A stretch of 64,000 nt of DNA, taken from positions 95,852,001-95,916,000 of the forward strand of contig OZ024742.1 in the NCBI GenBank assembly GCA_964016885.1, given 5' to 3'. Positions 2,091 to 59,248 of this stretch are shown piece by piece. Source of the stretch: Eledone cirrhosa (Eukaryota). The position numbers and the translations under genes were made by a program. The notes beneath the pieces were generated by a model. The model was not told the DNA's origin. It saw only the letters and a list, made by a program, of their open reading frames with translations, and ran no database searches. Numbering within the stretch: the first letter of the stretch is position 1; each line of letters opens with the position of its first letter.

Positions 2091-2880
2091 TTAATATTTG
2101 ATGAACATTTACATGTTTTAGTTGCAATCGACTAATAAAATCGCTAGAATGAAATATCTTAATTCAACAACATAAAGTTTGCCTGTACGATCTAAAAAAT
2201 AATAAATCAATACTCACAGACTCATATGGGCAAAAAGCCTTGGTACCTAGACACGTTTAAAATTCAAAATACAAACTTTTTCCGCAGATCGGTCAGAACT
2301 TCAAACTTCAAACATGTTTCACAAAGGATGGTATAATAGTGAAATAATTAACTAATTAGCAGTGAGTTAATCAGCTTTTTCTGTGTTTATCAATAGGTAC
2401 CCAGATAAAATTAAATAACTCCACCTCAGAAAAATATCTAAGGTCTGGTTAGCATAGCGAAAATACACGAGGTTTTGCACACGGCTTATTCCAGTCCTCT
2501 AACGTCCCACACATAGTGCTAGAAATAACAGCCGTTTATAGTTAATTATTTCACTATTATACCATCCTTTGTGAAACATGTTTGAAGTTTGAAGTTCTGA
2601 CCGATCTGCGGAAAAAGTTTGTATTTTGAATTTTAAACGTGTCTAGGTACCAAGGCTTTTTGCCCATATGAGTCTGTGAGTATTGATTTATTATTTTTTA
2701 GATCGTACAGGCAAACTTTATGTTGTTGAATTAAGATATTTCATTCTAGCGATTTTATTAGTCAATTGCAACTAAAACATGTAAATGTTCATCAAATATT
2801 AATTTATTCTGCTCAGAAGCGATTCTTAGAGCTGAAATGATTGTAAATGACCCCATTGAGTCTAAACTCTAAGCTATTTA
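2091..2880. repeat. Fold-back insert with 264-bp inverted arms (2091-2354 / 2539-2802) between TA tracts
   Basis: Arm 2 is the reverse complement of arm 1; I saw one mismatch (gcaatcgac vs gcaattgac). 184-bp spacer; unique 78-bp extension after arm 2. Confidence 0.93.
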
Positions 2881-2924
2881 TATATAGTTATATATATATA
2901 GTTATATATAGTTATATATAGTTA

Positions 2925-4243
2925 GGAGGAGTTTAAGACCGGATGCCCGTGGGAACTCCTGTATGCTGATGACCTCGCACTCATAGCTGAATCTATGGTA
3001 GAACTAGAGAATAAGTTCCAAACTTGGAAGCAGGGACTAGAAAGAAAGGGTCTCAAAGTCAACATGACAAAGACTAAGGTCCTTGTAAGTAGACGAGAAA
3101 ACAGAACCCAGATCCCCTCAGGGAAATGGCCTTGCTCAGTATGTAGGAAAGGTGTAGGTAGGAACTCCATTCTCTGCCCCAAATGCAAACAATGGGTACA
3201 CAAGAGATGTAGCGGGATCTCAGGAAGCTTAATTAAGAATGTAGGATTCACATGCAGCAGCTGTGCTGAGACAGCAAGCAGCAAACAGCCACAGGAAACA
3301 AGTACCACCAATCTCTGGGAGGGCTCTGTAGAAACAGTAGACAGCTTCTGCTACCTAGGTGACCGAATTAGCAGCGGAGGTGGGTGTTCAGAAAGTACAA
3401 TAACTAGGGTAAGAACGGGATGGAAGAAGTTTAGGGAACTACTACCACTGCTAGCTGAAAAAGGCTTCTCCCTCAAAATGAAAGGCATACTGTATGATGC
3501 GTGTATCCGAACAGCAATGTTGCATGGTAGTGAGACCTGGGCGCTGAAGGTGGAAGACTTACGTAGATTAGAGAGAAACGAAGCCTGCATGCTCCAATGG
3601 ATGTGTAACAGTAATATACGTGAACGACAAAGCATAAATGAATTGAGAGAGAGACTGAGCATAAGAGGAATCAAATGCTGTGTGCAGGAGAGGCGGTTGC
3701 GCTGGTATGGACATGTGATGCGTATGAAGGATGACAGCTGCATAAAAAGGTGCAGAGCACTAGAAGTTGATGGAAACCGCGGAGTGGGGAGACCCAAGAT
3801 GACCTGGGATGAGGTGATAAAAGCCGACCTTACCCAATTACACCTCTCAAGGACAATGACACACGACCGTGACTTCTGGCGTCACGCAGTAATACAGAGT
3901 ACCCGACCTCCCATGGGTACAAGCTGAAGCATATAGACAATATGCTCCCCCACCCCCACCCACCCCCACCGCAAGGTGGTCGTGGAGGTGCCACGGCAAA
4001 AAAGCACCCAGCCCACACTGTAAAGTGGACGTGTAGGCGCCACGAAAAAGCACCCAGCACTCACTGTAAATGAGGTTCGTGTTAGGAAGGGCATCCAGCT
4101 GTAGAAATCAAGCCAGATCAGTTCCTGTATGAGCAAGGCATGGTCAGCCGACCAGACACTGCCGACAACAGGACAACCCGTCTAACCCATGCTAGCGTGG
4201 AAGAACGGACGTAAAACGGTGATGATGATGATGATGATGATGA
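2925..4243 (+). mobile_element. 5'-truncated RTE-clade LINE with 3' UTR and (GAT)n tail
   Basis: RT C-terminal ORF, then a 3' UTR with 'gttaggaagggcatccag...aacccatgctagc...ggacgtaaaac' and a (GAT)n tail; inserted in a TA-rich tract. Confidence 0.93.
2926..3927 (+). CDS. RTE LINE ORF2 C-terminal fragment (reverse transcriptase with embedded C4HC3 PHD-like finger)
   Basis: Open frame from EEFKTGCPWELLYADDL through [58 protein letters not shown]. Confidence 0.92.
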   Translation, partial: EEFKTGCPWELLYADDLALIAESMVELENKFQTWKQGLERKGLKVNMTKTKVLVSRRENRTQIPSGKWPCSVCRKGVGRNSILCPKCKQWVHKRCSGISGSLIKNVGFTCSSCAETASSKQPQETSTTNLWEGSVETVDSFCYLGDRISSGGGCSESTITRVRTGWKKFRELLPLLAEKGFSLKMKGILYDACIRTAMLHGSETWALKVEDLRRLERNEACMLQWMCNSNIRERQSINELRERLSIRGIKCCVQERRLRWYGHVMRMKDDSCIKRCRALEVDGNRGVGRPKMTWDEVIKADLTQLHLSRTMTHDRDFWRHAVIQSTRPPMGTS

Positions 4244-4741
4244 GTCAGCATTACAGTCACTAGGGCTTCTTTACTTTTATGATTTTTTGTCTCATTTTAT
4301 ATATCTTTATAGAAATTTTTTTCCATTTTTCTCTGAATATATGTTTGTGTTTATTATTGTTGTTATTTTGTGTGTAAATGATATAATAAATGTTGTCAAA
4401 GATATGCTGTAAATTCTTTTGGGAACTCACTGTATTTTTTGCATTTTTATTTTGTTTTGTTTTTTTGTTACATTAGTTATTGTTGTTGCTTGATTGTTAG
4501 GAATACATTTACTCTTTAAAAAAATTAATAAAAAATTATCCTAAAGTGGGAATCTACATGTCATCTGTTTTTATGTTTTGAAACATTCTGAGAACATCAA
4601 AGATAAATTCAATTGAAGTATACGTGTAATTGACCTGAAACGATTAACACTACCCAGCAACTGTTGAAAACTTTACTCTGGCTTCAGTTGACTGCTCATT
4701 CATTTACTTTCATAATTTACTCAATGTTGTATTAAATATTT

Positions 4742-4773
<32 letters not shown>

Positions 4774-5032
4774 AGGCAAAGGTATGGCTGTGTGGTTAAA
4801 AAACATTTTGCTTTGGTTAATGTCCCACTGTATGGCATCTTAGGCAATTGTTTTTACTATTCTCTCAAGATGACCAATGCCTCTCTTCAATCACTGCAGC
4901 TCACTGTTGAGTTAAATACACGGCATCTAAAATGGATGCAGAACAGTGATGGTGATGATGTATATAGCTAGCATAGAGATGAAATCAGTAAAATGTCTTC
5001 ACTAAATAACAAACTTATGCCAGTGTTTTATG

Positions 5033-5104
<72 letters not shown>

Positions 5105-5187
5105 GTTTATTATTGTTATTATTTTGTGTGTAAATGATATTAATAAATGTTGTCAAAAATATATTGTAGATATATATATATATATAC

Positions 5188-5570
5188 ATGTGTAGTATAT
5201 TTGGCAATATACTGTATGTTTAATTAAAAACATTTTTAAAACCATTCGCTGACTTTTAAAGTAGTGACTATGTCACTTACTTATTCTTGACAAAAACAAA
5301 GGGAGGGTGATTGACAGTCTGTTTCTCACTTGTTAGCATTTATCAAGAGCACACACTCCCTTGCCTTTGCCGAGAATTATAGAAGCTGGATTTTATAGAA
5401 TTCCAGTAATATTTAAGAGCTGATTAAACAGAGAATTGCCAGTCCAGCAAAAATTAGGTATTAGTGTTGGTGCTCTGAAATAGTAATATATACAGGAATG
5501 TATGTGTAGTATATTTGGCAATATACTGTATGTTTAATTAAAAACATTTTGAAGACCATTTGCTATGAGT

Positions 5571-5572
<2 letters not shown>
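5188..5572 (-). mobile_element. TA-embedded insert with ~60-bp direct repeat (5188-5246 / 5502-5560) and a hammerhead-like motif
   Basis: Direct repeat 'atgtgtagtatatttggcaatatactgtatgtttaattaaaaacatttt'; flanked by TA tracts. Confidence 0.55.
5307..5352 (-). ncRNA. Hammerhead-like motif, U3-A8 core, imperfect stem I
   Basis: Minus strand: gtgctc TTGATAA a tgct aaca agtg a GAAAC agact GTC aatcac, within an extended gggag/ctccc helix. Confidence 0.5.
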
Positions 5573-5614
<42 letters not shown>

Positions 5615-5615
<1 letters not shown>

Positions 5616-5816
5616 CGAAGGAAAAGTGGTAAGGAACCAGGTGGACCATAACGCACCAAAGTACTCAATACTTAGGGTAGTAGAGTGGGTAATAGGAGTA
5701 AGTAAGACCCCGACGGCTGAGCTCAAGCCGTTTCGATGGCTAATTCTGTACTGAATTAGCCGTACAGAATTAGCCGTCGAAACGGCTTGAGCTCAGCCGT
5801 CGGGGTCTTACTTACT

Positions 5817-5821
<5 letters not shown>
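5615..5821 (-). mobile_element. Family-A short insert (Penelope-like 3' end) with fold-back arms 5692-5751 / 5762-5821
   Basis: Homologous to 22843-23209, 31473-31532 and 42258-42386. Carries the hammerhead 3' half GAAACGGCT-loop-AGCCGTC; TA flanks on both sides. Confidence 0.85.
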
Positions 5822-5896
<75 letters not shown>

Positions 5897-6323
5897 TGTA
5901 GGTCTGTATGTATGTATGTATATTAAGGAAGAGATGGAAATTTCAGTTCAACATATTTTATAATCACATGTAACATGTGTTTTGCAAATGACCAGACCAG
6001 AGCTTCAGTCAATGCAATCAGCTCAATAGATTTGCTCATCAGATGCAATGCAGATGAAAATCAGAATATGATTCTCTCATCAACAGGGTATCATTCAACT
6101 TCATTATCACCGTATAACATCTATTTTCCACGCTATCATAGATTAGAAAACTTCTTTCATTGTGAGACAAGCCAGGTCAGATGACCATGCCCTGCTCATA
6201 CAGAACTGATTTGGGCTTGGCTTCTACAGCTATATTATCTTCCTAATGACAACCACATTTACAGTGCGAACTGGGGACTTGGGTGGTGCAGGTACTGATG
6301 GATTAGGAATGTAGATCTTTTTC

Positions 6324-6380
<57 letters not shown>

Positions 6381-6389
6381 AGTTTTCCA

Positions 6390-6451
<62 letters not shown>

Positions 6452-6894
6452 TATTTATTAATATAACAGATTAAAGTTTAAGCAAAGAATCGCTGCTTTA
6501 CCTTTAACAGGATCTTCTGAAACTAAAAAAATTAATCTGTGAACGCAGAAGCAAATATTTCGAAAAATGTTGCAACCGATGGACAACAGGAAGACGAAAC
6601 TTTGGTTCGTGAAGACGTTCAAACAAAACCACGTTTATGGTATAAATGGAGTCTTTGCGTGTATTTGTTCTCATCACTCCACATAACGATGTATTATCTT
6701 TGCTTTTTTCTGTTCATTGCCAGGGAACGTCTTCACGATCCAAAGTATCGTCTTCCTGTTGTCCTTCGGCTGCAACGTTTTTCAAAATATTTACTTCTGC
6801 GTTCACAGATTGATTTTTTTAGTTTCAGAAGATCCCGTTAAGGGTGGAAGCAGCTATTCTTTGCTTAAACTTTAATCTGTTATTTTAATAAATA
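6452..6894. repeat. Fold-back element with ~170-bp diverged inverted arms (6452-6620 / 6725-6894)
   Basis: Arms are reverse complements with scattered mismatches; 'tcagttttccaaga' is duplicated at 6379-6392 and 6909-6922 outside the TA flanks. Confidence 0.88.
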
Positions 6895-6989
6895 TATATA
6901 TATATATATCAGTTTTCCAAGAGATATCAACACAAATTTTTTCCATTTCCAACCTGCCATCCCCTCAATCTATCTTATTTCTCATTCTT

Positions 6990-7025
6990 TCTTCTGATGA
7001 AGGACTAGCATCCGAAACGCCAAGA
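6990..7025 (+). ncRNA. Minimal type I hammerhead motif (cleavage triplet mutated)
   Basis: tctt CTGATGA a gga ctagca tcc GAAAC gcc aaga; GCC replaces the expected GTC. Confidence 0.65.
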
Positions 7026-7125
7026 CCCTCTTCCTATTATTTCAAGCGTTAACCTAATATATTCATTCCATATACTGTAGCAACTGTGTTGTTATTTCTG
7101 TTTACCTTTTACATACATATATATC

Positions 7126-7492
7126 TCTGGCGTCACACAGTAATACAGAAGACCCGACTTCCCATGGGAACAAGCCAAAGTATATAGGAAATATGCCCCC
7201 ATCCCCTCCCACTGCAAAGTGGTTGTGGAGCTGTCACGACAAAAAAAGCACCCAGACCACATCATAAAGCGGATGTGTAGGCGCCGCGGAAAAAAAGCAC
7301 CCAACACTCACTGTAAATGAGTTTGGTGTTAGGAAGGGCATCCAGGTGTAGAAATCAAGCCAAAATCAGTGCCCATATGTGCAAGACAGGGTCAGCCGAC
7401 CTAACATTGACCACAACAGGACAACCCGTCTAACCCATTCTAGCATGGAAGAATCGACATAAAACAGTGATGATGATGATGATGATGATGAT
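7126..7492 (+). mobile_element. RTE LINE 3' end (UTR and GAT tail)
   Basis: Collinear with about 3876-4243. Confidence 0.88.
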
Positions 7493-8905
7493 ATATATAC
7501 ATATATATCCTTCTCTGGAAAACATTACTTGTGTTCACATCTGGAGAGCAGGTGGTCTCCGCTAGGTTTAAAATGTCCAAGAAACACTGTTTATCACTAC
7601 AGTGCCTATCTTAACTCCATCAGAATTTGTTACATGTCTACATATACACAAACTTCCATATGGCATATTTCATCTTGATAGATTCAATTTAAAACCCTGT
7701 ATTTTTCAATCTCATTCATCCCTTACTTACATTCTTTAACTAGCTCTTTAATTATTTTAACTAGATACGGTCAACCCATGCTAGCATGGAAGATGGACCT
7801 TAAACGATGATGAGGATGATGATGATGATGACAGTCAACTACTTGTTTCTATAGCAAAGTAAATAAAGTAAATACAAACTCCTGAAACATTTTACAGAAA
7901 CACTGTGAATGGTTTTACAAAAGAAAAGGTTTATCCTCAGATGAAAGACCTTATCCAATTACTTTCATGAGATAGGAATTTGCTAAATATATCTAAGGAC
8001 CAGGTGGTGATGCCAAAGGCCTGTGAATTAGTTATTAAGGTGTTCAGCTCTAAATTGTAAGGTCATGAGTTCAATCCAACCCCCACCTTCTGGCAGCGTG
8101 TTGTGTCCTTGTGCAAAATATTTTAGTTCACTCAGCTGGAAAAATAAAATGTGTGGTTTTGTTTAATAGCTCCAAAGCTGCTTTCAAATGGCTTTGTAAT
8201 GAAAGAGTTAATGGCACACATGTCTGTGGAATGTTAACCACTTATATATTAATTTCACTAGCCTGCTGTTCTGTTGATCAAACAGCTGGAACACTTGGTG
8301 ACAGAACCAGTGGAGGTTCCACAGCAGGAACAAGGTGTAAAACCTGACAACGGATTAAAGTCAGCCACCTAAGCACAACTTGATGTGAATACACAAACAC
8401 ACATACAAAGACATTTACAGTTCATGATTCGCATTTTTCTATATAGAATTTATCAAAAATTATATTCATTATCCCAAAATTAGCCCCATTATCACCAGCT
8501 TAATATATATACGTTGTTTTTAAGTTGCCAATGAAAAGGAAACTGAAAGGAAAGGAAAACTGATAAAATGGCCAGTTTAAAATGACAGACAGTAAAGTGA
8601 ACATGAATGGCAAATGAGGACAATCTATTTTCATTCCTCATGAATTTCAGAAAATACAAAATAAGACAAAATAGAGGAGGAAATATGAAAAGTAATGAGA
8701 GCAAAATATAAAGACAAGAGAAAAAGTTGCTGTTTAATATTATGGAATGTATCAAAAGAGAGTATTCATCATGATAGGCTAGAGGATATTTTGAAATCTG
8801 GCGATAATATATATTTTATGCATAACATTGCTGTTGGGGCACTGAGTATGTCTATGTGGATGAGAGTATGTATGTGTATGTGGTGGTGAAAATCTAAGTA
8901 AAAAT

Positions 8906-8923
8906 AATACATATATATATATA

Positions 8924-8982
<59 letters not shown>

Positions 8983-9083
8983 CATGTATATATATATATA
9001 CATGTATATATACATGCATATATATATGTATATGTATATATATAGATGTATATATATATATGTATATATATATATGTATATAT

Positions 9084-9114
<31 letters not shown>

Positions 9115-9117
9115 AAC

Positions 9118-9148
<31 letters not shown>

Positions 9149-9311
9149 AACGTGTATATATATATATACATTTATATATATATATATACATGTATATATA
9201 TATATGTATATATATATGTATATGTATATATATATACATGTATATGTATATATATATATGTGTATATATATACATGTATATGTGAAGATAGACATAGAGC
9301 ATTTATACATG

Positions 9312-9368
<57 letters not shown>

Positions 9369-13937: not shown

Positions 13938-14542
13938 ATTATATATATATATATATAAATACATAATCGGAGAAAGCTAAAAGCGATACTCCGGCCAAAT
14001 TCGAACTCACTCAACAAACATTAGGAAATACCTGAGTATATTCCTAATTAAATGTTCGGGGTGCTAACTAATTGTATTGTGTGGAAAATTGGGTGTATCA
14101 TTTCATATGAGATATATCAAATATATCTCTTCCCAGATGGATGTCTCGTTTCACTATAAGATTTCTACAAGTTGGGTGAAATTATACCAATTTATGTAGA
14201 ATCTTGTATAAGATCAACAGATACTTATTCAAGTGGGCTCTTATAATTCTTCAGTGGGTGCCCAATAATATTAATATTGATAACCAAATCAACATCAATA
14301 TTTAGCGATAATCACCATCAGTGCTTGAGGGAGCTGCTAGGTTGTTAGTCCAACAGTTCTAAAGAAAATCTCACACTGTCTCGAAAATAGGAGGAAGGAG
14401 ACTACCGCCAAAAAACAATACATGCGCAGGTCAATGAATTCTGAAAAGAATTCAAGCCACGTGGTAGAACTCAATTGGATATGAAAAAATAACCATATGT
14501 GTGCATCGCTTGATGACACACACAGATATTTTCTCGGGCAAA

Positions 14543-14946
14543 AAGAAGAAGAAGAAGAAGAAGAAGAAAGGGGCAGATAGAAATTATGAAGGCCAAGCAG
14601 AGTTTCACATAGAATGTTGTAATCATGGAATTATTAATTTTAATATTTTTATCACTATAACCCCACCATTTTGACAGGTATTTTGACAGTATATATATAT
14701 ATGTGTGTATATATTTATGTATATATATATATATATATATACATAAATATATACACACACATATATACATATATATATATATACACACATATATATATAC
14801 TGGCATAATACTTGTCAAAATGGTGGGGTTATAGTGATAAAAATATTAAAATTAATAATTCCATGATTACAACATTCTATGTGAAACTCTGCTTGGCCTT
14901 CATAATTTCTATCTGCCCCTTTCTTCTTCTTCTTCTTCTTCTTCTT
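14543..14946. repeat. ~150-bp inverted repeat centred on a TA/CA tract (14543-14692 / 14797-14946)
   Basis: Arms are near-exact reverse complements including the (AAG)n/(CTT)n ends. Confidence 0.92.
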
Positions 14947-15984
14947 CTTCTTCTTCTTCTTCTTCTTCTTCTTCTTCTTCTTCTTCTTCTTCTTCTTCTT
15001 CTTCTTCTTCTAATACTGGTCATTACCTTACTTCATTTTAAATTCATTTAAACCAATTATGGTAATATTAACCATTATGTACATAATGGTTTACATGCTG
15101 CTACAAGAACAAAAAACAATTATAATAGGCATAAACATCAACCCTTTGACTGGTCAGTAGGTGGATTTGTTGTTGTTATAGATTATATGCATATATCAGT
15201 AGATATACATAAATAGATAGTTAAAGACAGACAGGCAGATAGATAGACAGATAATTTTGTTGTTATTGACATTCTTGTCTATTCAAAAGCCTTCCATACA
15301 TTTTCTGTTTACCCAATTCCACCTACAAGGCTTGAGTTGATCCAATTTGCCCAATATGTCACACTGGTGGTACTCATGATGCCAAAGCAAACCTCTTATC
15401 TTAACCATTCAACGATGTTTATGTTTATATATCATAAACATCATCAATATTTACTGTTCATTTTTCCATGCTGGCATAGGTTGGACAGGTCCTGAGAAAC
15501 CAACTCAGTACTTAATCAAGAGCTACATTCCATTCTGGTGTGTTTTCTATGACTGGATGTTATTCCTAATACCAACCACTTTACAGAGTGTACTGAGTAG
15601 ATTTCATCATGATATCAATACTAGGAAATTATCATCTTGATAAAACTAAGGATGTCTCTATATATCAATAAGACAGACACTGGTGGTATTACTGTTATAT
15701 AGTTTTTATCAATACCAACATGATGGAAGGTAAATTTAGTTGTAGCAACATTTGAACTCAGCACATATACAAAAGAACTTGAATATTGTAAAATATAAAG
15801 AATTGAATCCAGATTTTAGCTATTTCTGCTAACGGTTCACTTGACTGTCAATTCATCTATCAAACCCTGTGCTTGCCCCAGCTCTTACTTTTATATGAAT
15901 TCATTTGTTCCGTCCCACATTTACTATAAACCTTATGTATATAATATTTGTTGAATTATAATGTGTAAATCGTAAATCTTTCTG

Positions 15985-19100: not shown

Positions 19101-19157
19101 ATATATACACACACGCACGCACATATATGTATGTATGTATATATATATATATATATA

Positions 19158-19343
19158 TTAATTTTATTAAGGGTAAATAGTAAGTCTTTTTAATCTGGAG
19201 TTCTGCTTGCTTCTCACAGGGACTCTCACAGGATGAGAAGCAGGCGAAACTCCAGAGTAACAAGACTCACTTGATAGCCTTAATAAAATTAATTTTAAAC
19301 TCTACACAGGCATTGAGTACTCTTTTCTCTCAGCCTCAACTAC
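19158..19343 (+). mobile_element. Short fold-back insert (arms 19158-19216 / 19234-19292) with hammerhead 3' half
   Basis: GAAAC tccaga GTA at 19246; CATTGAGTAC at 19311; TA flank. Confidence 0.7.
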
Positions 19344-19499
19344 ATATGGATATATCATCATCAGCATCATCATCGTTTAACATCTATCTTCCATGCTAGC
19401 ATGGGTTAGACGGTTTTGTTCCATTTGATGCGGGAATGGTCAGGAGACCGTGTTTCGCTCGTACAGAAGTGTCTTTGGTCAGTTTTTTACAGCTGGATA

Positions 19500-22842: not shown

Positions 22843-22846
<4 letters not shown>

Positions 22847-23209
22847 ACGGAAGAGTTGTAGTAAGGAACCACATGGACCATAACGCACCAGAGTACTCAA
22901 TATTAGGGTAGTAGAGTGGGTAATAGGAGAAAGTATGACTCCGACGGCAGACCTCAAGCCGTTTCGATGGCTATTTTTGGACTAAAGTAAGAGTTTTTTT
23001 TTTAGTCTTGTAAATAAATAGCCAAACCTTTCAAGGGTACTTTCTTACATGGAAAGATTGTAGTTGTCAAGGGGATTGGTCAAAATTTGTAGCGGACACA
23101 GAAAGTTTGGCTATTTATTTACAAGACTAAAAAAAAAACTCTTCCTTTATTCCAGAAATAGTCGTCTAAATGGCTTGAGCTCTGCCACCGGGGTCATACT
23201 TTCTCCTAT
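22843..23209 (-). mobile_element. Family-A insert with fold-back arms 22923-23032 / 23101-23209
   Basis: Homologous to 5615-5821; the longer copy reveals the hammerhead 5' half. Confidence 0.85.
22939..23037 (-). ncRNA. Hammerhead-like motif with long stems II and III, U3-A8-type core
   Basis: Minus: ccc TTGAAAG gtt tggctattt ... aaatagcca tc GAAACGGC-loop-GCCGTC ggag. Confidence 0.55.
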
Positions 23210-26420: not shown

Positions 26421-27860
26421 CTAGCTAACAGGTTTAAAGTAGAAGAAAGAGCTTAATATTCGGTGGGGGCAAGAGGAAAAAATTTCAGACTTTCTATTTA
26501 GTAGAGGGCATTTAGCAAATATAATAGAGTGGGATTCGGCAAGGCACAGGTTGCATACTCTACTATGAGGAGTATATGGATGGGATTTAGCAACCTGCCG
26601 CCAAGTAAGTGTGTAAGGTGTTCGTGCATTTTTTAAATTATGGACGTACGCTGCCAAGGAGGTGGAGTTCTTCAGTTTATTATGTCTAAAAGTGCATTGA
26701 TGAGAGTTAAACCTGGTCTTAAAGGGGGTGGAAGTTGATCCTATATAGGTCATAGTGGACGCCGTAGTTACCACATCACACGCATAAACTATGTTTCTAA
26801 CAAGGCAGAAACCATTCAGGGGGCAGCCCGAAGCCCTTCTACAGTTACAACCTCTGGTGATGCTATTCTCAGAAAGATCACCACCAGTGTTACTGCCCAC
26901 TCTATCCACTACCGTGTTTTCCCCTAGGCTTAGGTTGTCCAGGCCTTCCTTTATTTTCTTATTATTAGTAATGGCCAGATGAGAGGCTAGATTTTGGGTT
27001 GTAGAATATGAAAGTTTAACAACATTCTTATTGAGGATAGAGTGGTACCTATTACCAGGAGGGAAGTTCCGTTCTAGCACAGAGAAGAAGGCCCTAGGAA
27101 TATTTGTAGCCACTTCAGAATTAAAAGGGGGGTTGAAGTATGTATTCAATCTTCTTCTATTCTTTTTATTCTTTCTATTTCCATCAGTATTATTAGCATT
27201 ATTATTTCTACGGTTCCTATGCTCACCTAGTCTATGCGGGGAGCTGCGAGGCCCACCATTGCTATTACTTAGACTAATGGTGCCCTGCTGGTTCATTCCA
27301 CCGGCATCTAGAAACCTCCCATTCACGACACCTCTATTGTTATTACTTAGACTAATGGTGCCCTGCTGTTTCATTCCACCGGCATTTAGAACCCTCCCAT
27401 TCGCGACACCTCGATTACCAATGGACATATTATGTGTTATAACAACACTGGTAGAGCTACTATTAGGACCATTATTTCCCTGGGTGTAATACAATTTGTC
27501 CCTAAAGCCGGATCTAGCTAAGGCGTCGTTATAGTAATCAGCCTGCGAGTCAAACGCCTCCTCACTATGTGAGAGTGAACTTATTCTATTAGATACGCCC
27601 TTCAGTATACCGCTGATGACAGACCTAGGGTGGTTGGAGTAGGTATTCACGTAAGTCAGCAATTCATTGGGCTTATGGTACGGTGTGTACGTATGGTTAT
27701 CCAAGTCCAGTGTAACATCTAGGAAGTTCACAGTTCTATCATTTACATCCATTGTAATGGATAGGTTAAAAGTTTTAAAAAAGCTATGCAGCTTTTTCCT
27801 AATGCGCTCTATATTATACTTACTAGTATCTATGGAGAGTAGGGCGTCATCTCGGTACAA
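26421..27860 (-). CDS. Penelope-like polyprotein, C-terminal 479 aa (RT from YRDD, thumb, linker, GIY-YIG endonuclease)
   Basis: [53 protein letters not shown]...YIGST...[26 protein letters not shown]; uninterrupted frame. Confidence 0.93.
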
Positions 27861-27883
27861 CCCGATACTTATATATGTATATA

Positions 27884-27958
<75 letters not shown>

Positions 27959-29687: not shown

Positions 29688-30563
29688 CTAAATGGATTAG
29701 AATGAAACGAAATTTCATTTCTCACTCTTAGTATGGCACTTACTTAAATGTAAGTATGTATGTATACATACATATATGTATACAGACGTACAGTAGTATG
29801 TATATATATACACACATGCACACATATATATATATATATATGTCGTATCGGTTTACCGAACATTTATTATAATGCTCGGTTTGTTTGTTTGTTTGTTGTT
29901 TGTTTGTTTGTAAACAAACAAACAGTCCGAATTACCCCGTACAGTGTTTAGGCAACCACGTCACCTTTTTGTTCGACACTGACACAGGAACAATGTATTA
30001 GTTTCAAGCTTATTAGCTATCGTCAGCATCGTATACCTTCCTGCCAGATGGTTGAACGTCTGAAATTATATACTTTCCTTATGCATATTAACGGCTGAGC
30101 AGCCTAATTTGCATATCGAGTGATTTCAGTCGGCCGGGCACACCGAAAACGATAAATGGAATAGAATGAAATGAAATTTCATTTCTCACTCTTAGCACGG
30201 CACTTACTTAAATGTAAGTATGTATGCAAATTAGGCTGCTCAGCCGTTAATATGCATAAGGAAAGTATATACTTTCAGACGTTCAACCATCTGGCAGGAA
30301 GGTATACGATGCTGACGATAGCTAATAAGCTTGAAACTAGTATATCGTTCCTGTGTCAGTCTTGAACAAAAAGGTGACGTGGTTGCCTAAACACTGTATG
30401 GTGTAATTTGGGCCGTTTGTTTGTTTACAAACAAACAAACCGAGCATTATAATAAATGTTCGGTAAACCGATACGTGCATATATATATGTGCATGTATGT
30501 ATATATATACATACTACTGTACGTCTGTATACATATATGTATGTACGTATACATACATACATA

Positions 30564-30565
<2 letters not shown>
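29688..30565. mobile_element. Family-B insert with complex fold-back (about 29752-30115 inverted at about 30223-30565; terminus restarted at 30154-30222)
   Basis: Direct comparison of arms; two hammerhead copies on opposite strands. Confidence 0.88.
30306..30348 (+). ncRNA. Type I hammerhead motif (family B); mutated mirror copy at 29990-30032 on minus
   Basis: acgatg CTGACGA t agct aata agct t GAAAC ta GTA tatcgt. Confidence 0.78.
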
Positions 30566-30604: not shown

Positions 30605-30630
30605 TTATATATGTATATATATATATATAT

Positions 30631-31052
30631 ATATTGGTAAACGGAATAGAAAATGCTGACAAATTGTTCACAGTTGAAAAATGGTTTAATTAGGAATAAA
30701 AGAGTATTAGTGATTGTATGGGTTAGTATTCAGTTGTGGTTTTAAGTTTTTACCGGTTGCGCATTTCTAAATGCTTTTCAAAAATAATTTTGAGATAGAG
30801 TGTCCGTGCTGTTTGCTCAGATCAGAGCAAACAGCACGGACACTCTATCTCAAAATTATTTTTGAAAAGGATTTAGAAATGCGCAACCGGTAAAAACTTA
30901 AAAACTTAAAACCACAACTGAATACTAACCCATACTATCACTAATACTCATTTATTCCTAATTAAACCATTTTTCAACTGTGAACAATTTGTCAGCATTT
31001 TCTATTCCGTTTACCAATATATAATAACTTGTGTGTTACACCTCTATTCTTT

Positions 31053-31057
<5 letters not shown>
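30631..31057 (+). mobile_element. Near-perfect ~190-bp hairpin insert (30631-30818 / 30825-31020, 6-nt loop) with hammerhead-like motifs in both arms
   Basis: Arms are reverse complements; ttt TTGAAAA gcattt ag aaatgc GCAAC cg GTA aaa at about 30748-30784(-), with a mirror copy at 30859-30895(+). Confidence 0.9.
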
Positions 31058-31100: not shown

Positions 31101-31470
31101 TAAGTTATTCCGGGTTGAATCGGAGGTAACCACAGTAAGTAAGGTACTCAATACATAGCAGAGTATAAAAGTTTTAATATAGATGAGATTCTACAGGACT
31201 AGAACTGTTTCATACTTTAGAAATCATCAGGAATCTGGCTGTCCAAAATAAATGTTGTGGTATTTATATCTTTTCTGGTGGTAGGAGGGGTGGGGAGTGG
31301 GATGGGTGGAGGTCATTGGTTGAAAGAAAAAGGAATTCTTTAAAAGCTAATTCTTTACGGCTATAATTTATATTTAGAGTGACAAAGGCAGAAAGAATTC
31401 TATAAACAAGTTCAGATTGGGGAGCCACTCCTTATTTTTAAGTTTCTCTTAAGCTAACAATGCCATAAAT
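31098..31470 (-). mobile_element. Family-C insert with hammerhead
   Basis: Terminus homologous to about 35003-35120; GTACTCAATA at 31144. Confidence 0.75.
31186..31236 (-). ncRNA. Type I hammerhead motif (family C)
   Basis: Minus: agattc CTGATGA tttctaaagtat GAAACAG ttctagtc CTGTA gaatct; strong stems I and III, weak stem II. Confidence 0.72.
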
Positions 31471-31472
31471 AT

Positions 31473-31532
31473 ATAACGAGTGAATTGTGGTAAGGAACCA
31501 GGTGAACCATAACGCACCAGAGTACTCAATAC
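31473..31532 (-). mobile_element. Family-A terminal 60-bp fragment
   Basis: 'gtggtaaggaaccaggtg.accataacgcacca.agtactcaatactta' as at 5626-5674. Confidence 0.85.
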
Positions 31533-31904
31533 TTATATATGTATATCCTTATATATGTATATACTTATATATGTATATATATATACTATAAAAAAGAAAA
31601 TTTCGCTCTACATGGCTGAATACAATAAATGTGATCAGAGTTCTTCGAATATTAATAATAACATTCGATTTGTTTGTAATTATGCAAGCCTCAATGTTAT
31701 AGCCATGTCTTGCTCTTATGTTGGCATGCCATCATAAGAGCAAAAATTGAGGCTTGTTTACATAATTGAAAACGAATCAAATGTTATTTTTAATATTGGA
31801 TAAACTCAGGTTACATTTATATATATACTTATATATGTATATACTTATATATACTTATACTGTATATATATACTTATATATGTATATATATATATATATA
31901 CTTA

Positions 31905-34999: not shown

Positions 35000-35180
35000 G
35001 AGTCCCAGGTTCTATAGGGGGTAACCACAATAAGTAAGATACTCAATACATTAGTAGAATGTATACAACAAAATATAGAAATGGTGTCTACATGATGAGA
35101 ACTGTTTCATTTGAAAGCAATCACCATCCGATGATTTCCTTTGAATGAAACAGTTCTAGTCCTGTAGAAGCCATTTCTCT
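35000..35180. mobile_element. Family-C fold-back copy (arms 35077-35123 / 35132-35178) turning at the hammerhead core
   Basis: Plus arm reads ccgatga tttcctttgaat GAAACAG ttctagtc CTGTA gaagcc. Confidence 0.75.
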
Positions 35181-35183
35181 CTC

Positions 35184-35219
<36 letters not shown>

Positions 35220-41294: not shown

Positions 41295-41795
41295 TTCTGT
41301 CCACACAACCCTTACACAGTAAAGATGTGTTGGTATCACAACATAAAAGTATCCAGCCCATGCTGTAAAGTGGTCAAATAGGTGTCATGATAAAAAGCAC
41401 CCAGCACACTCTGTAAAGTAGTTGTATTGGTATCATGGCAAAAAGCACTCAGCCCACATTGTAAATGTCGTTGGGATTAGGAAGGGCATCCAGCCATAGA
41501 AACCTAGCCAGAAACAATTATGTATGAGCAAGATATGGTCACCTGACACAACTTGACTCAAATGCGATAACTTCTCTAACTCATGCTAGTGTGGAAAATG
41601 GATGTTAAATGATGATGATGATCATCATCATCATCATTATCATCATCGATTAATGTCTAACTTCCATGCTAGCATAGATTAGATGGGTTTGACCCATTTA
41701 GAGACAATTTGGGTTGGGTGACCATGTCTCGCTCATATAGGACTGTTTCTGGCAGGTTTTCTACAGCTGGATGTGCTTCCTAATGCCAACCACAT
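41295..41795. mobile_element. Two RTE-type 3' ends tail-to-tail ((GAT)n meets (CAT)n at about 41622)
   Basis: 'ttaggaagggcatccagcc' on plus, then 'gctggatgtgcttcctaatgccaaccac' as the minus copy. Confidence 0.75.
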
Positions 41796-41800
41796 ATATA

Positions 41801-41840
<40 letters not shown>

Positions 41841-49519: not shown

Positions 49520-49551
<32 letters not shown>

Positions 49552-49788: not shown

Positions 49789-49820
<32 letters not shown>

Positions 49821-50899: not shown

Positions 50900-52180
50900 T
50901 CTATCAATACATCATTCCAACATTTGTTGACTGGTTCATGTTTCTGTCAATTGTCTACCACCAGTTCTTCTTGGGATGTTCTTTTCACCTCTCTCTGTGG
51001 AAGTACTACTACAGGACCTGATTAGCATGTTTCTCATTTGGTTGTCAGGTTATGTGCCCCTGCCAGCCAAGTCGATGCTTGTACATGATGTTAGATACAC
51101 ATTGATGCATTGTTGGCAAGTTTGTTGATTCAACTTTTGTTGGTGATGAATTCATACTACCTGATGCCAATGCTTTTCCAGAAGTTAAAAGCTTCTAATT
51201 TGTTCTCTTGGCTGGTCTTCACACTCCACATTTCACACCCAACATGAGTGCTGAAAGCACATTGCTGTTGTTAAATTTCATCTTGGTTCTTAGCCAAGGT
51301 TTTTTTAGGTGGCCAAAGCTTTGCCTATTCTACAATTAATTTATTTCATCATGTCCCCATTTTTGTTCATAGAGCTTCAGAGGTAGGTGAAGCCAGCCAT
51401 AAACTTCACATCCTCTTGATTAATGCAGTCATTTGTCATGATGGATACATATACTAACAATTGTGTTCTTGGTATTATTTTACACTGATGTGGAGACCGA
51501 TGCTGGCTGCAGATGAACCTCTCTCATCTATCAGATATTTCACAGTGGATGTACATTTGGCCATGGCAGCAATATCATCTGCAAAGTCAAGGTCTGAGAG
51601 CTTCTGTTCCTCTAGCCAGTCAATGCCCTTATCTTCTGTTGCTCTTTTGAGAATCCAGTCGATGGCCAAATGAAGGAGAATTGGAGAGAGTGGGCTTCCT
51701 TTGTGGACTCCAGTGATTAACTCAAACGACTCACTATAGCCATCCTCAGTTCTTACACAGTATTTTGAACCAGTATATAAATTCTTGATGGCTGAGACAA
51801 CCTTGGATAGTATACCATAAACTTGCTTGATATTCCATAAGTATAGTCTGTGTAGGCTATCAAATGCTTTAGTAAAGTCAAAGCATGTAATGGCAAGTGG
51901 TACTTGGAATTCATTGTATTTTTCAATGATAAGTAGATATTTTATTGGCACAGGGGCATTTGGGTCAGAATCCAGTTTGTTGTTCATGCAAGACTTTTCA
52001 TTTGATTCAGCATAACCTAGCAGTACACCTTTCATGGTTTGGATGGAAGTGTTATTTCGCTCCAGTTGTCTCATTCTGCAAGATTACTCTTTTGGAAGAT
52101 ACAGGCAATTGCTCCATTCTTCCAGTCTTCTGCTACCTCACCTGTATTCCAGATCTGTTTGCAGAACTGGCGCATCCATA
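50900..52180 (-). pseudogene. Decayed RTE-clade LINE reverse transcriptase
   Basis: FDFTKAFDSLHR, TGVHKGSPLSPILL, LSDLDFADDIA in ORF 51475-52074; degenerate continuation toward 50900. Confidence 0.88.
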
Positions 52181-52189
52181 ATCTTTAGG

Positions 52190-53130: not shown

Positions 53131-53132
53131 TA

Positions 53133-53520
53133 TAAAATAATTGTTTCTACTTTTGGCACAAGGCCAGCAATTACCCAGTGCATTACTGGTACTTTATTTT
53201 ATCGACCCCGTAAGGATGAAAGGCAAAGTTAACCTCGGCGGGATTTGAACTCAGACCATAAAGGGACATAACTATGCTGAAAAGTATGGCGTCCGACCCT
53301 CTACCGATGCTGCCAATCCATGTAAAATAATTGTTTCTACTTTAGGCACAAGGCCAGCAAATACCCAGTACATTACTGGTACTTTATTTTATTGACCCCG
53401 TAAGGATGAAAGGCAAAGTTAACCTCGGCCGGATTTGAACTCAGACTGTAAAGGGACGTAACTATGCTAGAAAGCATGGCGTCCAACCCTCCACCAATAC
53501 TGCCAATCCATGTAAAATAA
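53133..53520 (-). mobile_element. Tandem pair of tRNA-derived SINEs (190-bp period) with Meta-type core
   Basis: Minus: A-box tggcagcatcgg, B-box gagttcaaatcc, core 'tttgcctttcatccttacggggtcgataaa...agtaccag'. Confidence 0.85.
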
Positions 53521-54149
53521 TGATCATCATACATATACACACTGACAAATCCTGTTAGACAATATTTCAACAGAAGAGAAGAAACGTTTTCTCATAAGAA
53601 AATTCAAATAATCGTTGTTTAACTATTTTTCTCTACTGAATACATTCAAATTAGAAACAAGTGTAGCATGTGTAACCTGGGACTGCAGCAGCAAAGAATG
53701 GCACCTAAAATTAAGCATACAACACAACCAGCCTGTTATATGAAGGATTTTTCAAATTTATGTACTGTAATCACATAACGTTAATATTATGTATAGTTAT
53801 ATATTTAATTATATTGAGAAACAACATAAACTAGGCATATAGTTATTGAAATATATATCAAATTAAAATTGCTTCACTCTGATAGTGGCTAAATGTGTTT
53901 AAGAATTTGCTTCACAATCATATATACACAGAATGTGCACACACACATTTATATTATAGTTGCATGCATCTTATACATATACAATCACACATATACGCAC
54001 ATGCACTCAAGCACTCACAGATACACAGTAACTACAATTAGAGAGCTTATTTAGCCTTAATCTCTCTACAGAATATGCCGTGGCTCACATTGAAGAAACA
54101 AGGAATAATCTGGTAACCCCTTTCCATTCACATCATCTTAGACACAGAA

Positions 54150-54470
54150 ACCACACAAATACATACATTCACACCATATGCATACACAAATGCCATACAT
54201 ACAAGCCCACCTATTCCATTTACACACATACTGCACAAATACATACATATATACATTCACACCATATGCATACACACATGCCCACCAATTCCATATACAC
54301 ACATACCACACAAATACATATATACATACATATACACCATATGCATACATAAATGCCATACACAGAAGCCCACCTATTCCATAAACACACATACTGCACA
54401 AATACATACATACACAATATATGCATACACAAATGCCATACACACAAACGAACCTATTCCATAAACACAC
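54150..54470. repeat. CA-rich minisatellite, about 4 imperfect units of 65-90 bp
   Basis: Repeated 'caccatatgcatacacaaatgccatac...cctattccat'. Confidence 0.8.
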
Positions 54471-54570
54471 TACACTTGTACACAATAGCACGTGTACATG
54501 TCACACACAAATACATTTTCACTTTACTCTCATTAATCACAAAAACGAATTTGTAACTGCTGCTAATACA

Positions 54571-54603
<33 letters not shown>

Positions 54604-55559
54604 AGTGGTGGTTGTGGTATAAGTGGCAGTGCTGGTGCTGGCAATGTTGGTGGTGGTGGTGGTATTGTTGCTGTTACTGTTGTTGGTGCTGGTGGTACTG
54701 AGGATAGTAATAATGATGTTAGTGGTATAATGATGATAACAATGCTGATGATTATGATGAATATATTCATAATAATAATAATGGTGATGATGATGATTAT
54801 TGTGTCACTAACAGCAGAGTTTAAATCAATTTTCAAAAGACTATTATTCCATATTAACTGACATCAAACTAAACCACTTAATGCCACACAATGTTTGAGA
54901 CAAACACCAGATCCTGGTGATTGATTTTTCCTTGATTTCATTAAGAATTTGCATCTTCCGTTAGAAACTATTAGAAGCAGAAATTGGTGTATGGAACCAA
55001 GTCTATAATTGGGTGTTTATGTGTCTTTTATTTTCTGTCGATCTGCATACTTTTGCTAAAGGAACTCTGATGACACTAATAATGATTTAGGTGTAACTAT
55101 GATTGTGTATATGAATATCTGCACAGATATATTCATATGTGTGTGTTTGTGTATGACTATGTGTGTATGTATGTAAATATATATATATATTGGTTATATT
55201 GGTTTCCATTTGTACATATGCATAAGTATATCCATTAATTGAACATAAACAAATCTATACTTAAACATTGTTATCCACAAACACAAGCAAATACAATCTA
55301 AAAACTTGTATTCAGTTTCAGTAACCTGAACCAATCTGGAACATAATCTATCCTGACGAAGAACTTTCGTTTGGTCCTATCTAGGCTGGTTGCACTAATG
55401 TTATTGTGATCAACTCTTTTAAGACAATGAACATTCTTTTGTTAGGATAACTTAGGTTAAAATCATATACATTCTCTATTATTTTGCATTGAGTACTCAT
55501 TTAAAAGCTTCACCATTACTCTCATATTAAGTAAAACCATCAGTTAGTTGCCTCATAGT

Positions 55560-57560
55560 TCCATTGAACAGTAAGGAGAACTCATTACCCCAGAAGATGG
55601 ACTGGGAGATTCATTAGAATATCCATACCAACTTGTGGGGTTTGCTGCTGCAAGTGACCAACTCTGCCCCAATAGTATTGAGTAGAGAAGTGATGTGGGG
55701 ACCAAGAATGTTGGAACTCTCCAATGTTATAGGTTTGATGATATGACAAACTTATTAGAGAGTGTTCGATACATACTATGACTTCAGCTTCAAAAGCAGC
55801 AAAGTCTGAGTTAGTTGCTGAATGTGTCAGGTAGCTGATAGAGGAGGTATCATTGTATGTATCATTCCCATTGTGGAATGGGAAGATCATGAAGCTCTCT
55901 GGCCTTTTGCTGTCCTCTCAGTCCACCTCTGCTAGCTTTAGCTTAGAAGTGAAACCTGCAGCAATAAAGTCATACTTTATAATTTCAATGAGTGCAGCAT
56001 GGCATGGGAGGTAGATGGTGCTGTAGTTGCATGATAGTGGTTTAAGCTGAAAGAGTCCACAATGGTTCAACAACAGCATTTGTGTGCTTTGCAGATCTGG
56101 AGGATGAACTTCAGTGAAACACTAATATGCAAACAGTCACTGTCCAGCTGATAGTTGTTTGATAATGAAGGTATGAAATTAAGCCAGGCATCTCTATTGT
56201 GTTGGAAGGCTGAGAAAAGATATGCGCGATGGTTCTGGTCAAGCTGGCACACAAGCCAATTCAAGGCCATGTCGTACTGGATGCCATCCCATCTGCTTTG
56301 GGTGATTGGAGCTCTATAGAGAGGGAAAGGTCTGGAAATCTGCAGAGTGAAGCCTGTGCTGGTTCCAGGTCTCATAAGCTGTCTAGTATACCCAGATCAT
56401 AGTAGATTCCATTGTGTTGTGAAGAGCCTTGTTGATGAGGAGATGGCAGGAAGTTGCTAATGAAAGAAATCCCGGCAATACTGATGAGACTGGAGATTAG
56501 AGACTGAGGCCACCTTATCTGACTGGTAAGGTGGCTTGTTGCCACCTAGGTAAGGTCGCTTGTTGCTTCAAGATACATGAAGAGAAATGTGTGGCTGTAG
56601 CAAGGGACACTGCAGAAGGTTTATAGAAGCAATTTCTCAACAGGAAAAGGTCTGAATGTGCATTGATCAGGTTCAATCAGTTCAAAGCATGAACCTGAGA
56701 GTGGAAGAGATGGCAGGCACAGGAGGATCAGTGAATTGACGATGAAAACATTTCCCTTTGGGGTCACCTGCACTTGGTGGAATTGAATTTATGTTCATGA
56801 CATTTTCATGAGTTTTTCTTGAGGTGATCCTCAGCTGAGCAGGAACTATCAATTATTGAATCATCCATGTCCCAGATGTTGATATGAGTCATGATGCTGC
56901 AAGAAATGTTGTCTCCCCAAGTGGGAAGCAGAGGGTGCCCAGTCGATTTCCCTGTTCAATACTGGTTGAAGATGATATGACCTTATCTACAGTGAGTTTG
57001 ACTTAACTCTATACTACTGGCAGCTTGAAGACAAAAACATATTGAAATCACTGGGTGCATTTGAGAAAAATAAAACTTTGGAGAATAGAATTTAAGGCTG
57101 GATCATTTAGTGGTGCTGATAAGTCAGCAACAGCTAAAGGATGTTGGCATCTCATTTGTGTTATTAATCTCAGTGGAATCTAGCAACATTGAGTATATGC
57201 ATCAGCATCCTAATGGCATCAATGCGTCCAGGTAGGCCTTTTGTTCAGTGTGTCTTGTGTTGCTGGTAGGCAGAATGTTCTAATGATATTTATGGTGATT
57301 TAGTGGGGTTCTAATGTTAGTATATTTTCATGGTGTGTGTGCTGGTTCAAGCTGTCTTATCTACACCAACACACAAGCAAAAGGGAACTATGGTTTTCTA
57401 AGTGGAATTTCAGGGACCAATGATTTGAAGATGGCTAAGTGAGTGCTTTTCCAGTTGCAGCAAAACATTACATCAGTTTTCTTGTTGATGGACATTGCAG
57501 GTTGTTGTAGTATTATACAATCTCCTACTGACTTATCAACACCCAACATGACCTAACTCA
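55560..57560 (-). pseudogene. Decayed CRE-like non-LTR retrotransposon (RT plus restriction-like endonuclease)
   Basis: Fragments SIEQGNRLG (QQGDPLG-like), IWDMDD, DAWLNFIPS...LDSDCLHISVSLKF..ICKAHKCCC, KRPE..IFPF..G..DT...SY...SA...AA..AE. Confidence 0.7.
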
Positions 57561-57670
57561 ACCAATGAAAACCCTTAGCAGCATAGCCTCAAAATATATT
57601 CTCCATCTTTTTTACTTTTCTCAAATCCTATTGATTTATATATCTTTGTCATGAAACTACAAATTTATGT

Positions 57671-57730
<60 letters not shown>

Positions 57731-57874
57731 TACGTATGTATATATACATATGTGCATATATATATATACATATGTACATATGCCCATATATATATATATA
57801 TATATATATACATTTGCACATATATATACATATGTACATATGCACATATATATATTCATATGTACATATGCATT

Positions 57875-58765
57875 TGGTTGGAAAAAGTTCAGAGAGCTTA
57901 TACCACTATTAGCTGCTAAAGGGTTCTCACTAAAAATGAAAGGCAGGTTGTACGATGCCTGCATACGAACAGCAATGCTGCATGGCAGTGAGACCTGGGC
58001 ATTGTGTGCAGAGGATATACGCAGACTAGAGAGGAACGAAGCTTGCATGCTCCGCTGGATGTGTAACAGTAATATACGTGAACGGCAAAGCATAAACGAA
58101 CTAAGGAAAAAATTAGAGATAAGAGGGATCAGATGTTGTTTACTCGAGAGAAGGCTACGTTGGTATGGACACGTGATGCGCATGAAAGTCGATAGCTGTA
58201 TAACAAAGTGCAGGGCAATAAAGATAGACGGTAGTCACGGAATAGGCAGACCTAGAAAAACCTGGGACGAGCTGATAAACTCCGACATCACACACTTACA
58301 CCTCTCCAAGACAATGTCACTGGACCGAGACCTTTGGCGGTACTCAGTAACAGAGAAGACCCGCCTTACCTAAATATATAGTAAAACCTACTCCAGCCAG
58401 TAGGCATCTCTAACAAAATACACCCCGTCCCACCACCACCACCCCCACCCGATCCACACCACCCCGTTCTATGTAAAGTTATGTTGGTGCCGCGCCATCG
58501 AGGCCGAAACAAATGAGATCGTGTAGGTGTCACGACAAAAAAACACACAGTCCACGCTGTAATGTGGCCGTGTAGGCAACACGGTAAAAACCTCCCAGAC
58601 CCACACTGTAAATGTGGTTGGTGTTAGGAAGGGCATCCAACTGTAGAAAACCTGCCAGACAGTCCTATGCGAGCAAGACAATCACTCTTGCCTCAAGTGG
58701 GACTACCCCCGTCCAAACCCATGCAAGCGTGGAACACGGACGTTAAACGTTGATGATGATGATGA

Positions 58766-58769
<4 letters not shown>
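57875..58769 (+). mobile_element. 5'-truncated RTE LINE with GAT tail, inserted in TA-rich tract
   Basis: Paralogous to 3418-4243. Confidence 0.92.
57876..58373 (+). CDS. RTE LINE ORF2 C-terminal fragment
   Basis: [12 protein letters not shown]...MLHGSETW...RRLRWYGHV...GRPRKTW; the ORF-track N-terminus is microsatellite. Confidence 0.9.
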
Positions 58770-58807
<38 letters not shown>

Positions 58808-58819
58808 GTACATATATAT

Positions 58820-59248
58820 ATATAACTGAACAAAAAGGAAAAACAAACACAGACATATATGTGTTCAAATCGTAATGGACCAAAATCACTAAGGTGAAAA
58901 AAATACTAACTACAGACAATAGGTTTTGCTAGACTCAATTTAAGAATAAATTAAGAAAAATAAATACTAACTAGTATTGTGGTAACTACCATCACCCAAA
59001 CCATACTGGTTTGTATTTATTTTTCTTAATTTATTTTTAAATTGAGTCTAGCAAACCCTATTGTCTGTAGTTAGTATTTTTTCCACCTTACGATTTTGGT
59101 CCATTACGATTTGAACACATATATGTATATATATCTGTGTTCGTTTTTCCTTTTTGTTCAGTTATATACGGCTCGGAAAAATCTTTTTCCTAGAGCTAAT
59201 TTACTGTAAAGAGAATATTTTGAGTTTCTAACTCAATACATGCTTTTG
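58820..59248. repeat. Fold-back insert (arms 58820-58967 / 59013-59168) with unique 80-bp extension
   Basis: Arms are reverse complements with few mismatches; TA flanks. Confidence 0.9.

Follow-up and report, generated by a model that had tools for sequence, protein, structure and literature searches.

What kind of event left eight inverted pairs of repeat arms, set against (TA)n tracts, in a 64,000-nucleotide stretch of the Eledone cirrhosa genome (assembly GCA_964016885.1, contig OZ024742.1, positions 95,852,001 to 95,916,000 of the forward strand; hereafter the window)? The initial annotation described one shared architecture, a full arm running to a unique terminus plus a shorter inverted copy stopping at an internal TA word, and attributed it to cDNA snap-back or twin priming resolved by annealing to the TA target end. 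Here, we find that the hairpins are real 5'-truncated 3' ends of Penelope-like elements (PLEs), made of a pseudo-long terminal repeat (pLTR) and a tail, in (TA)n, and that this layout was already known. As to how they form, the sequences point to twin target-primed reverse transcription that starts at two fixed RNA sites, a reading to which we give a probability of roughly three in four.

All eight pairs are present in a self-comparison of the window (Table 1), and they represent seven repeat families, with A occurring twice and B to G once each. Some details read exactly as annotated, namely ccaatatata at 31014, gttatata at 59161 and the homologous ...ctcctat ends of the two family A insertions at 5821 and 23209. 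Others had to be amended. The inverted copy is not always the shorter one, as at 2091-2881 the tail-less arm takes in the whole apparent loop (450 bp) and exceeds the tail arm (343 bp). Likewise, the inverted end generally merges with the (TA)n, as described, except at 35178, where a short (CT) run intervenes and the family F end lies ~19 nt before the family's main site. Two further head-to-head units, at 6445-6901 and 59903-61279, lie in the window beyond the eight.

The Penelope-like origin suggested earlier was borne out by the sequences to which the families are linked. In the 3.0 Gb assembly, a first look gave 631 to 2712 candidates per family, to be taken as lower bounds rather than copy numbers. 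Upstream of family A we reached a GIY-YIG C-terminus and then a full-length copy in genomic locus L156, comprising an inverted tailed pLTR on the 5' side, a direct tailed pLTR, an open reading frame (ORF), a long 3' untranslated region (UTR) and, in (TA)n, a 3' end without a tail. Its ORF (frame 3658-6030, 790 codons with one stop) carries a reverse transcriptase (RT), with a GIY-YIG endonuclease (EN) at the C-terminus, and in it we read RWR at 87 (RWK-like), DKT at 167, YRDD, CNCPDRSGC at 622 (CxCX5C), CNLC at 720 (CxxC) and CKH at 748 (CxH), with no CCHH. This motif set, together with (TA)n insertion, is the one that characterizes the Hydra clade in PMC8557442 (here and below, cited sources stand for the parts of them covered). 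Judged by motifs rather than by RT phylogeny, family A belongs to that clade; it resembles Hydra-1_Obim, Hydra-1_Ajap and Hydra-2_Amil in motifs and target, and differs in its long 3' UTR (>1.5 kb; element ~4.1 kb) and non-canonical hammerhead core. Family C is preceded by an endonuclease that has CX4CxxC, and CCHH in its C-terminal GIY-YIG (L095 and L108; in L095, CDRPNCGIC...C..C...H...H), and we class the family as a Neptune/Nematis-type PLE by this endonuclease part only. A further family, H, follows a Hydra-type endonuclease ORF in L278. Three features of endonuclease-positive (EN+) PLEs are represented: one ORF with PLE RT and GIY-YIG (family A), a pLTR present as a partial tandem with an inverted 5'-truncated copy, and a one-sided tail.

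Three further families contribute tandem units in which no ORF was found: a 565-bp non-autonomous unit in B, a ~516-525-bp unit with a canonical hammerhead motif in D and a 442-bp unit with a minimal one in G. No parent elements were found for families E and F. By eye, hammerhead cores are canonical or minimal in D, E, F and G and variant in A, and none was seen in B and C. An Rfam scan of the window gave only sub-threshold microRNA look-alikes and no hammerhead among the 150 of 205 matches listed, while a Pfam search with two ORF pieces returned no relevant family; the PLE domains were read from motifs.

The stop and the terminus of the annotation turn out to be equivalent, both being 3' ends. 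When the 3' ends in the fetched loci are mapped, two sites dominate in each family, separated by about 80 nt in A, 78 in B, 34 in C, 85 in D and 60 in G; in families E and F, which are older, the ends cluster likewise, with an inverted arm in 12/30 and 23/30 loci. Internal probes of family A (30 merged loci) revealed copies without a partner in view, nine ending at the tail-less site and six at the tail end. Because this second fixed 3' end is used also by partnerless copies, the tail-less site is more plausibly where reverse transcription begins than where an inverted copy stops and is resolved by annealing. Nor is the terminus of the longer arm unique, since the sequence runs on in tandem and full-length copies, and the tail end too overlaps a TA word wherever read-through copies reveal the continuation. 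We scored this overlap at 123 ends, all adjoining (TA)4 and agreeing with the majority of their family: it is at least 3 nt at 54 of 58 tail ends and at 54 of 65 other ends. Counted as distinct end sites, 11/17 overlap by at least 3 nt, with 3.1 expected (best-phase null, p=2e-5), and 13/17 by at least 2 nt, with 7.6 expected (p=0.008). The proposed enrichment of inversion ends at internal TA words is therefore above chance, and the minor end sites of family B likewise fall on TA words.

Two side observations concern these ends. Some (L003, L007, L122, L123 and window 35178-35187) run into (CT)n or (CA)n that continues the element's last letters before the (TA)n begins, which may reflect RT slippage making a new microsatellite or priming in compound repeats. 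There are also tail-only or near tail-only stubs between TA tracts (L009, L044, L251, L258, L261 and window 31470-31535), that is, very short cDNAs from the tail start.

The two ends are combined in a regular manner. From 228 merged loci we obtained 127 candidate head-to-head pairs and dropped ten (five simple-repeat matches in C, L091 of A, two chained rows of A at L014 and two diverged G rows), leaving 117 counted, of which two rows, L041 and L156, were corrected by hand for chaining. Ninety-nine are tail/tail-less pairs; the others are tail/other (8), tail-less/other (3), cut by the locus edge (4), tail-less/tail-less (2) and tail/tail (1). The 42 pairs not picked by a tail-containing probe comprise 34 tail/tail-less vs 2 tail-less/tail-less and 0 tail/tail (p ~1e-8 against 0.5). 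Twenty-five loci of family H, inspected by eye, gave five tail/tail-less pairs and one exception, the window unit at 6445-6901.

Of the two processes first proposed, snap-back would have one cDNA fold, copy itself and halt at a TA word annealed to the other target end. Several features speak for it: arms share variants, the TA overlap at the tail-less end is real, many pairs are near-perfect palindromes, and among 107 pairs both arms reach equally far 5' (within 10 nt) in 48. A self-copied arm, however, must nest in the first arm. The tail arm reaches further in 31 pairs, but the tail-less arm does so in 28, and in 12/63 pairs of the non-tandem families A and C. The tailed and tail-less arms extend 55 vs 2441 nt in L154, 181 vs 3328 in L158 and 107 vs 2022 in L041, and these long tail-less arms have no tail at all. 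In L041, L154, L155, L158 and L102, neither arm contains its partner (L156 is uninformative here, as it passes its own 5' pLTR). Because these arms are mutually non-nested, a single snap-back is contradicted as the general route. Moreover, its supposed stop also ends partnerless copies, and in family A the commonest centre is a palindrome without a loop, built on a self-complementary 4-mer, as two annealing ends would give. We consider snap-back improbable, and it is the other half of the original proposal, twin priming, that finds support.

The two arms of a pair derive from one source and have a real age, with one RNA and two RNAs of one source being indistinguishable. Shared variants within vs between insertions amount to 1.14 vs 0.08% (A), 1.37 vs 0.21% (C), 0.45 vs 0.07% (D), 0.30 vs 0.04% (G) and 0.09 vs 0.00% (B); in A, C, D and G, variants common to both arms are 5-14x those between insertions, and the arms still differ by 0.9-3.9%. 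Post-insertion events, whether adjacent independent insertions or DNA repair or template switching, with gene conversion homogenising the arms, would be compatible with the piling up of elements in the same TA tracts and with centres that resemble end-joining scars. They sit badly with centres that lack a TA tract, with the same family and source variants in both arms, with the one-tail/one-tail-less rule, and with D and G arms that differ by 3.5-3.9%, which implies that conversion is weak there. This makes them quite improbable.

The centres themselves carry extra letters in 51/117 pairs, some of which are subfamily differences, while the distinct insert-free centres (n=53) have a mean overlap of 2.3 nt vs 0.7. 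The inner ends cluster, with 64/102 family A arm starts at -128 to -142 and 19/34 family C starts at -223 to -232 from the tail end. This clustering would suit the published reading of palindromes at inverted junctions, in which self-priming on an antisense RNA template gives a head-to-head palindrome that the endonuclease resolves later (PMC3846280). That reading does not predict unique sequence in each arm, kilobase-scale variation of the centre, inserts at so many centres or two TA-overlapping outer ends, and sense RNA was used in vitro (PMC11167929); we regard it as very improbable. As a side observation, the clustered inner ends lie at initiator-like words, perhaps the RNA start, a pattern subject to probe bias. 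We also considered an extra, cap-derived G at these ends and do not claim it, as it occurs in only 3 of ~89 family A upstream contexts.

Are the hairpins artefacts, either assembly or amplification chimeras, or miniature inverted-repeat transposable elements (MITEs) with fixed terminal inverted repeats (TIRs)? No read or contig spanned a window hairpin: in searches of four runs with 58822-59250 and four with 5616-5818, none crossed the locus-specific centre. Against artefact speak the arm differences of 0.4-20%, the centres that vary among copies while outer ends are fixed, and the families that lead into RT/GIY-YIG ORFs or hammerhead units. In addition, in raw Illumina reads from three runs of one study, tail-less ends of family A pass into (TA)n in roughly a thousand or more reads per run, and the family's head-to-head joints recur at identical places in every run, from one or two start points each. 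These joints support the hairpin class, not these window loci. The asymmetric outer ends and variable centres also agree with the earlier statement that these are not MITE TIRs, as fixed symmetric TIRs around a constant interior were not seen. Either kind of artefact is scarcely credible.

How might twin priming operate on two fixed sites? The GIY-YIG endonuclease would cut both strands of a (TA)n tract, and each TA-ended 3'-OH would pair with a UA word on the RNA and prime one cDNA, one from the tail end and the other from the tail-less site. Both cDNAs would run toward the RNA 5' end over the same template, either by strand displacement on one RNA or on two RNAs of one source in one complex. 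PLE RTs are not known to have RNase H, and such RTs displace strands. The cDNA 3' ends would then be joined head to head by microhomology-mediated end joining, and the tail would simply correspond to the spacing of the two start sites.

For Hydra-type families, the enzyme is predicted to be positioned by a bulged RCTC/GAGY hairpin immediately 3' of each UA word. The motif (RCTC-stem-loop-stem-2 nt-GAGY) begins 6-10 nt after the start site, the sites being labelled S and T in each family. In read-through copies it lies 3' of A-S in 33/36, B-S in 23/25, D-S in 28/36, E-S in 15/28, F-S in 14/25 and H-S in 10/22, and 3' of A-T in 2/3 and D-T in 6/13, with a background of 0-7% of positions. In a held-out check by eye of six Hydra consensuses (PMC8557442, File S7), three matched strictly: Hydra-2_Amil, Hydra-1_Ajap (two copies) and Hydra-2_Ajap. 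It is tempting to speculate about a programmed version, in which a dimeric RT-endonuclease docks on two tandem RCTC/GAGY hairpins and the UA word 5' of each serves as a telomerase-like alignment site for the (TA)n cut ends. This we put forward tentatively, at somewhat less than even odds, and it is with similar reserve that we suggest that the docking hairpins are conserved across Hydra-clade elements from the coral, sea cucumber and Eledone cirrhosa genomes. As an aside, L155 contains an uninterrupted 781-codon Hydra-type ORF (1070-3412) of another family, with long direct pLTRs, and the 3' end of this element lies just before a bulged hairpin in its 5' pLTR copy.

Several points weigh against twin priming from two sites, or against the role of the hairpin in it. 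Three pairs break the pairing rule (two tail-less/tail-less and one tail/tail), as does the window unit at 6445-6901. The equal-reach pairs fit snap-back as well, many of them coming from a probe that favours short copies, and the variants shared between arms could stem from gene conversion. The TA test is limited by the selection of (TA)4-abutting ends and by the few sites, and the TA words could be kept for the endonuclease and not for priming. A search for target-site duplications in 107 pairs yielded mostly spurious matches, as (TA)n masks such duplications, and its result was not used. The hairpin motif was defined post hoc, after these sites were seen; it is absent at C-S (0/26), G-S (0/35) and G-T (0/28), and at B-T the strict form occurs in 0/7, rising to 4/7 when a bulge of 1-3 nt is allowed. 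Among the File S7 consensuses of PMC8557442, it is partial in Hydra-1_Amil and Hydra-1_Crog and absent in Hydra-1_Obim.

The inverted 5'-truncated pLTR, the one-sided 30-40 bp tail and the (TA)n bias of EN+ PLEs are published (PMC8557442, PMC3846280), and the insertion units described there resemble ours in the head-to-head truncated copy, the one-ended tail, the partial tandems, the hammerhead motifs and the microsatellite targets. In those papers, the tails of 30-40 bp are called optional and ascribed to endonuclease resolution or self-priming, whereas here they measure 34-85 nt; neither the one-of-each rule nor TA pairing at the two ends nor the hairpin signal is given in the parts of the papers covered. 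With the Poseidon element PAc in vitro, both strands are cut and extended, and two internal RT starts bound the tail (PMC11167929). The PAc starts lie in an AC-rich stem-loop without target homology, in contrast to the starts here, which overlap target-matching TA words and are paired one of each. In L1 twin or dual priming, the second target strand uses microhomology to prime inside the RNA, so that an inverted 5' part is joined at a microhomologous centre, with non-overlapping inverted fragments, an internal deletion and a variable second start (PMC2837659). Here, the two cDNAs start at two fixed sites and span the same sequence, which gives palindromes, and the arms overlap in nearly all pairs; the system works like twin priming but not in its L1 form. 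Non-long-terminal-repeat (non-LTR) retrozymes, which are non-autonomous PLE derivatives (bioRxiv 10.64898/2026.07.22.740005), resemble families D and G as ORF-less tandem units of ~440-525 bp with a type I hammerhead motif; family B differs in its 565-bp unit with no hammerhead seen. Our search of the literature, mainly open-access, found neither the two-site twin-priming model nor the pairing rule nor the hairpin set out anywhere; it did not extend to the supplementary files of PMC11167929, PMC3846280 and the bioRxiv preprint, which may bear on novelty.

Table 1. Hairpin arms and related features of the window, with the matching segments of each pair in the self-comparison
Feature	Positions	Strand	Remarks
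Family B tail-less arm	2091..2540	-	includes apparent loop; segments 2091-2354/2539-2802, 1/264 mismatches
Family B tail-bearing arm	2539..2881	+	tail ~2803-2881; bulged GCTC/GAGC hairpin at tail start
Family A (Hydra-clade PLE, by motifs) tail-bearing arm	5615..5756	-	3' half of hammerhead-like motif and 80-nt tail; segments 5692-5751/5762-5821, 1/60 mismatches
Family A tail-less arm	5762..5821	+	ends at fixed CTCC-TAT site
Family H hairpin	6445..6901	.	both arms end at tail-less site (exception)
Family E tail-less arm	19157..19216	-	segments 19157-19216/19234-19293, 10/60 mismatches
Family E tail-bearing arm	19225..19350	+	family with canonical hammerhead motif and ACTC/GAGT hairpin
Older family-A-related tail-bearing arm	22843..23104	-	segments 22923-23027/23105-23209, 11/105 mismatches
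Older family-A-related tail-less arm	23105..23209	+	ends at homologous ctcc-tat site
5'-truncated Hydra-type PLE ORF	26421..27884	-	RT C-terminus, CxCX5C linker, GIY-YIG; 32% identical to family A ORF
Family G tail-bearing arm	29689..30226	-	1.2 units of 442-bp tandem unit, minimal hammerhead motif; segments 29748-30115/30223-30562, 17/339 mismatches and 3 gaps
Family G tail-less arm	30223..30564	+	
Family C tail-less arm	30628..30818	-	ends at CCAATATATA site; segments 30628-30818/30825-31023, 3/191 mismatches and 1 gap
Family C tail-bearing arm	30817..31057	+	34-nt tail
Family F tail-bearing arm	35000..35134	-	diverged copy; segments 35077-35120/35135-35178, 9/44 mismatches
Family F tail-less arm	35135..35178	+	short of family's main site
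Family D tail-less arm	58819..58998	-	ends at GTTATATA site; segments 58819-58977/59003-59168, 7/158 mismatches and 2 gaps
Family D tail-bearing arm	59003..59254	+	85-nt tail
Further head-to-head unit	59903..61279	.	~44-nt tail on left arm, none on right; each arm abuts TA repeats

Other features of the window give context. The truncated Hydra-type ORF is a separate insertion; between RT and EN it has an asparagine-rich insert with a 78-bp duplication, reminiscent of the N-rich inserts in PMC3846280. The family H hairpin is flanked by two copies of a 13-bp word (6380-6392 and 6910-6922), the left one separated from the element by a long (TA)n; this may be a target duplication to which TA was added during insertion. 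Another kind of hairpin at 14540-14949 has 186-bp arms, a TA-rich centre and (AAG)n/(TTC)n outer ends, and has no second copy among the fetched loci. At 41458-41802, a common RTE-related short repeat ending in (GAT)n forms a tail-to-tail inverted pair, which is not the PLE architecture. Finally, there are four ORF fragments that we take to be from long interspersed nuclear element (LINE) reverse transcriptases, RTE-like and others, at 2926-3927 (+), 57579-58373 (+), 51475-52083 (-) and 62685-63693 (-).

The formation of the tail, the inverted repeat and the microsatellite bias of PLEs has been named an open task (PMC8557442, section 15). The elements and their layout are known; what is added here is a quantitative case for programmed twin priming, which makes this open question testable. 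The copies yield exact predictions, namely two start nucleotides, one per strand, a cis hairpin and a pairing rule, which are directly testable with the existing in vitro assay of PMC11167929. If true, programmed twin priming would bring tails, inverted pLTRs and the targeting of microsatellites under one rule. Since PLE RTs form the sister group of telomerase RT, a word for primer alignment that is set by a neighbouring RNA hairpin would offer an instructive parallel to telomerase. Twin priming would explain a long-unexplained signature of the PLE class.

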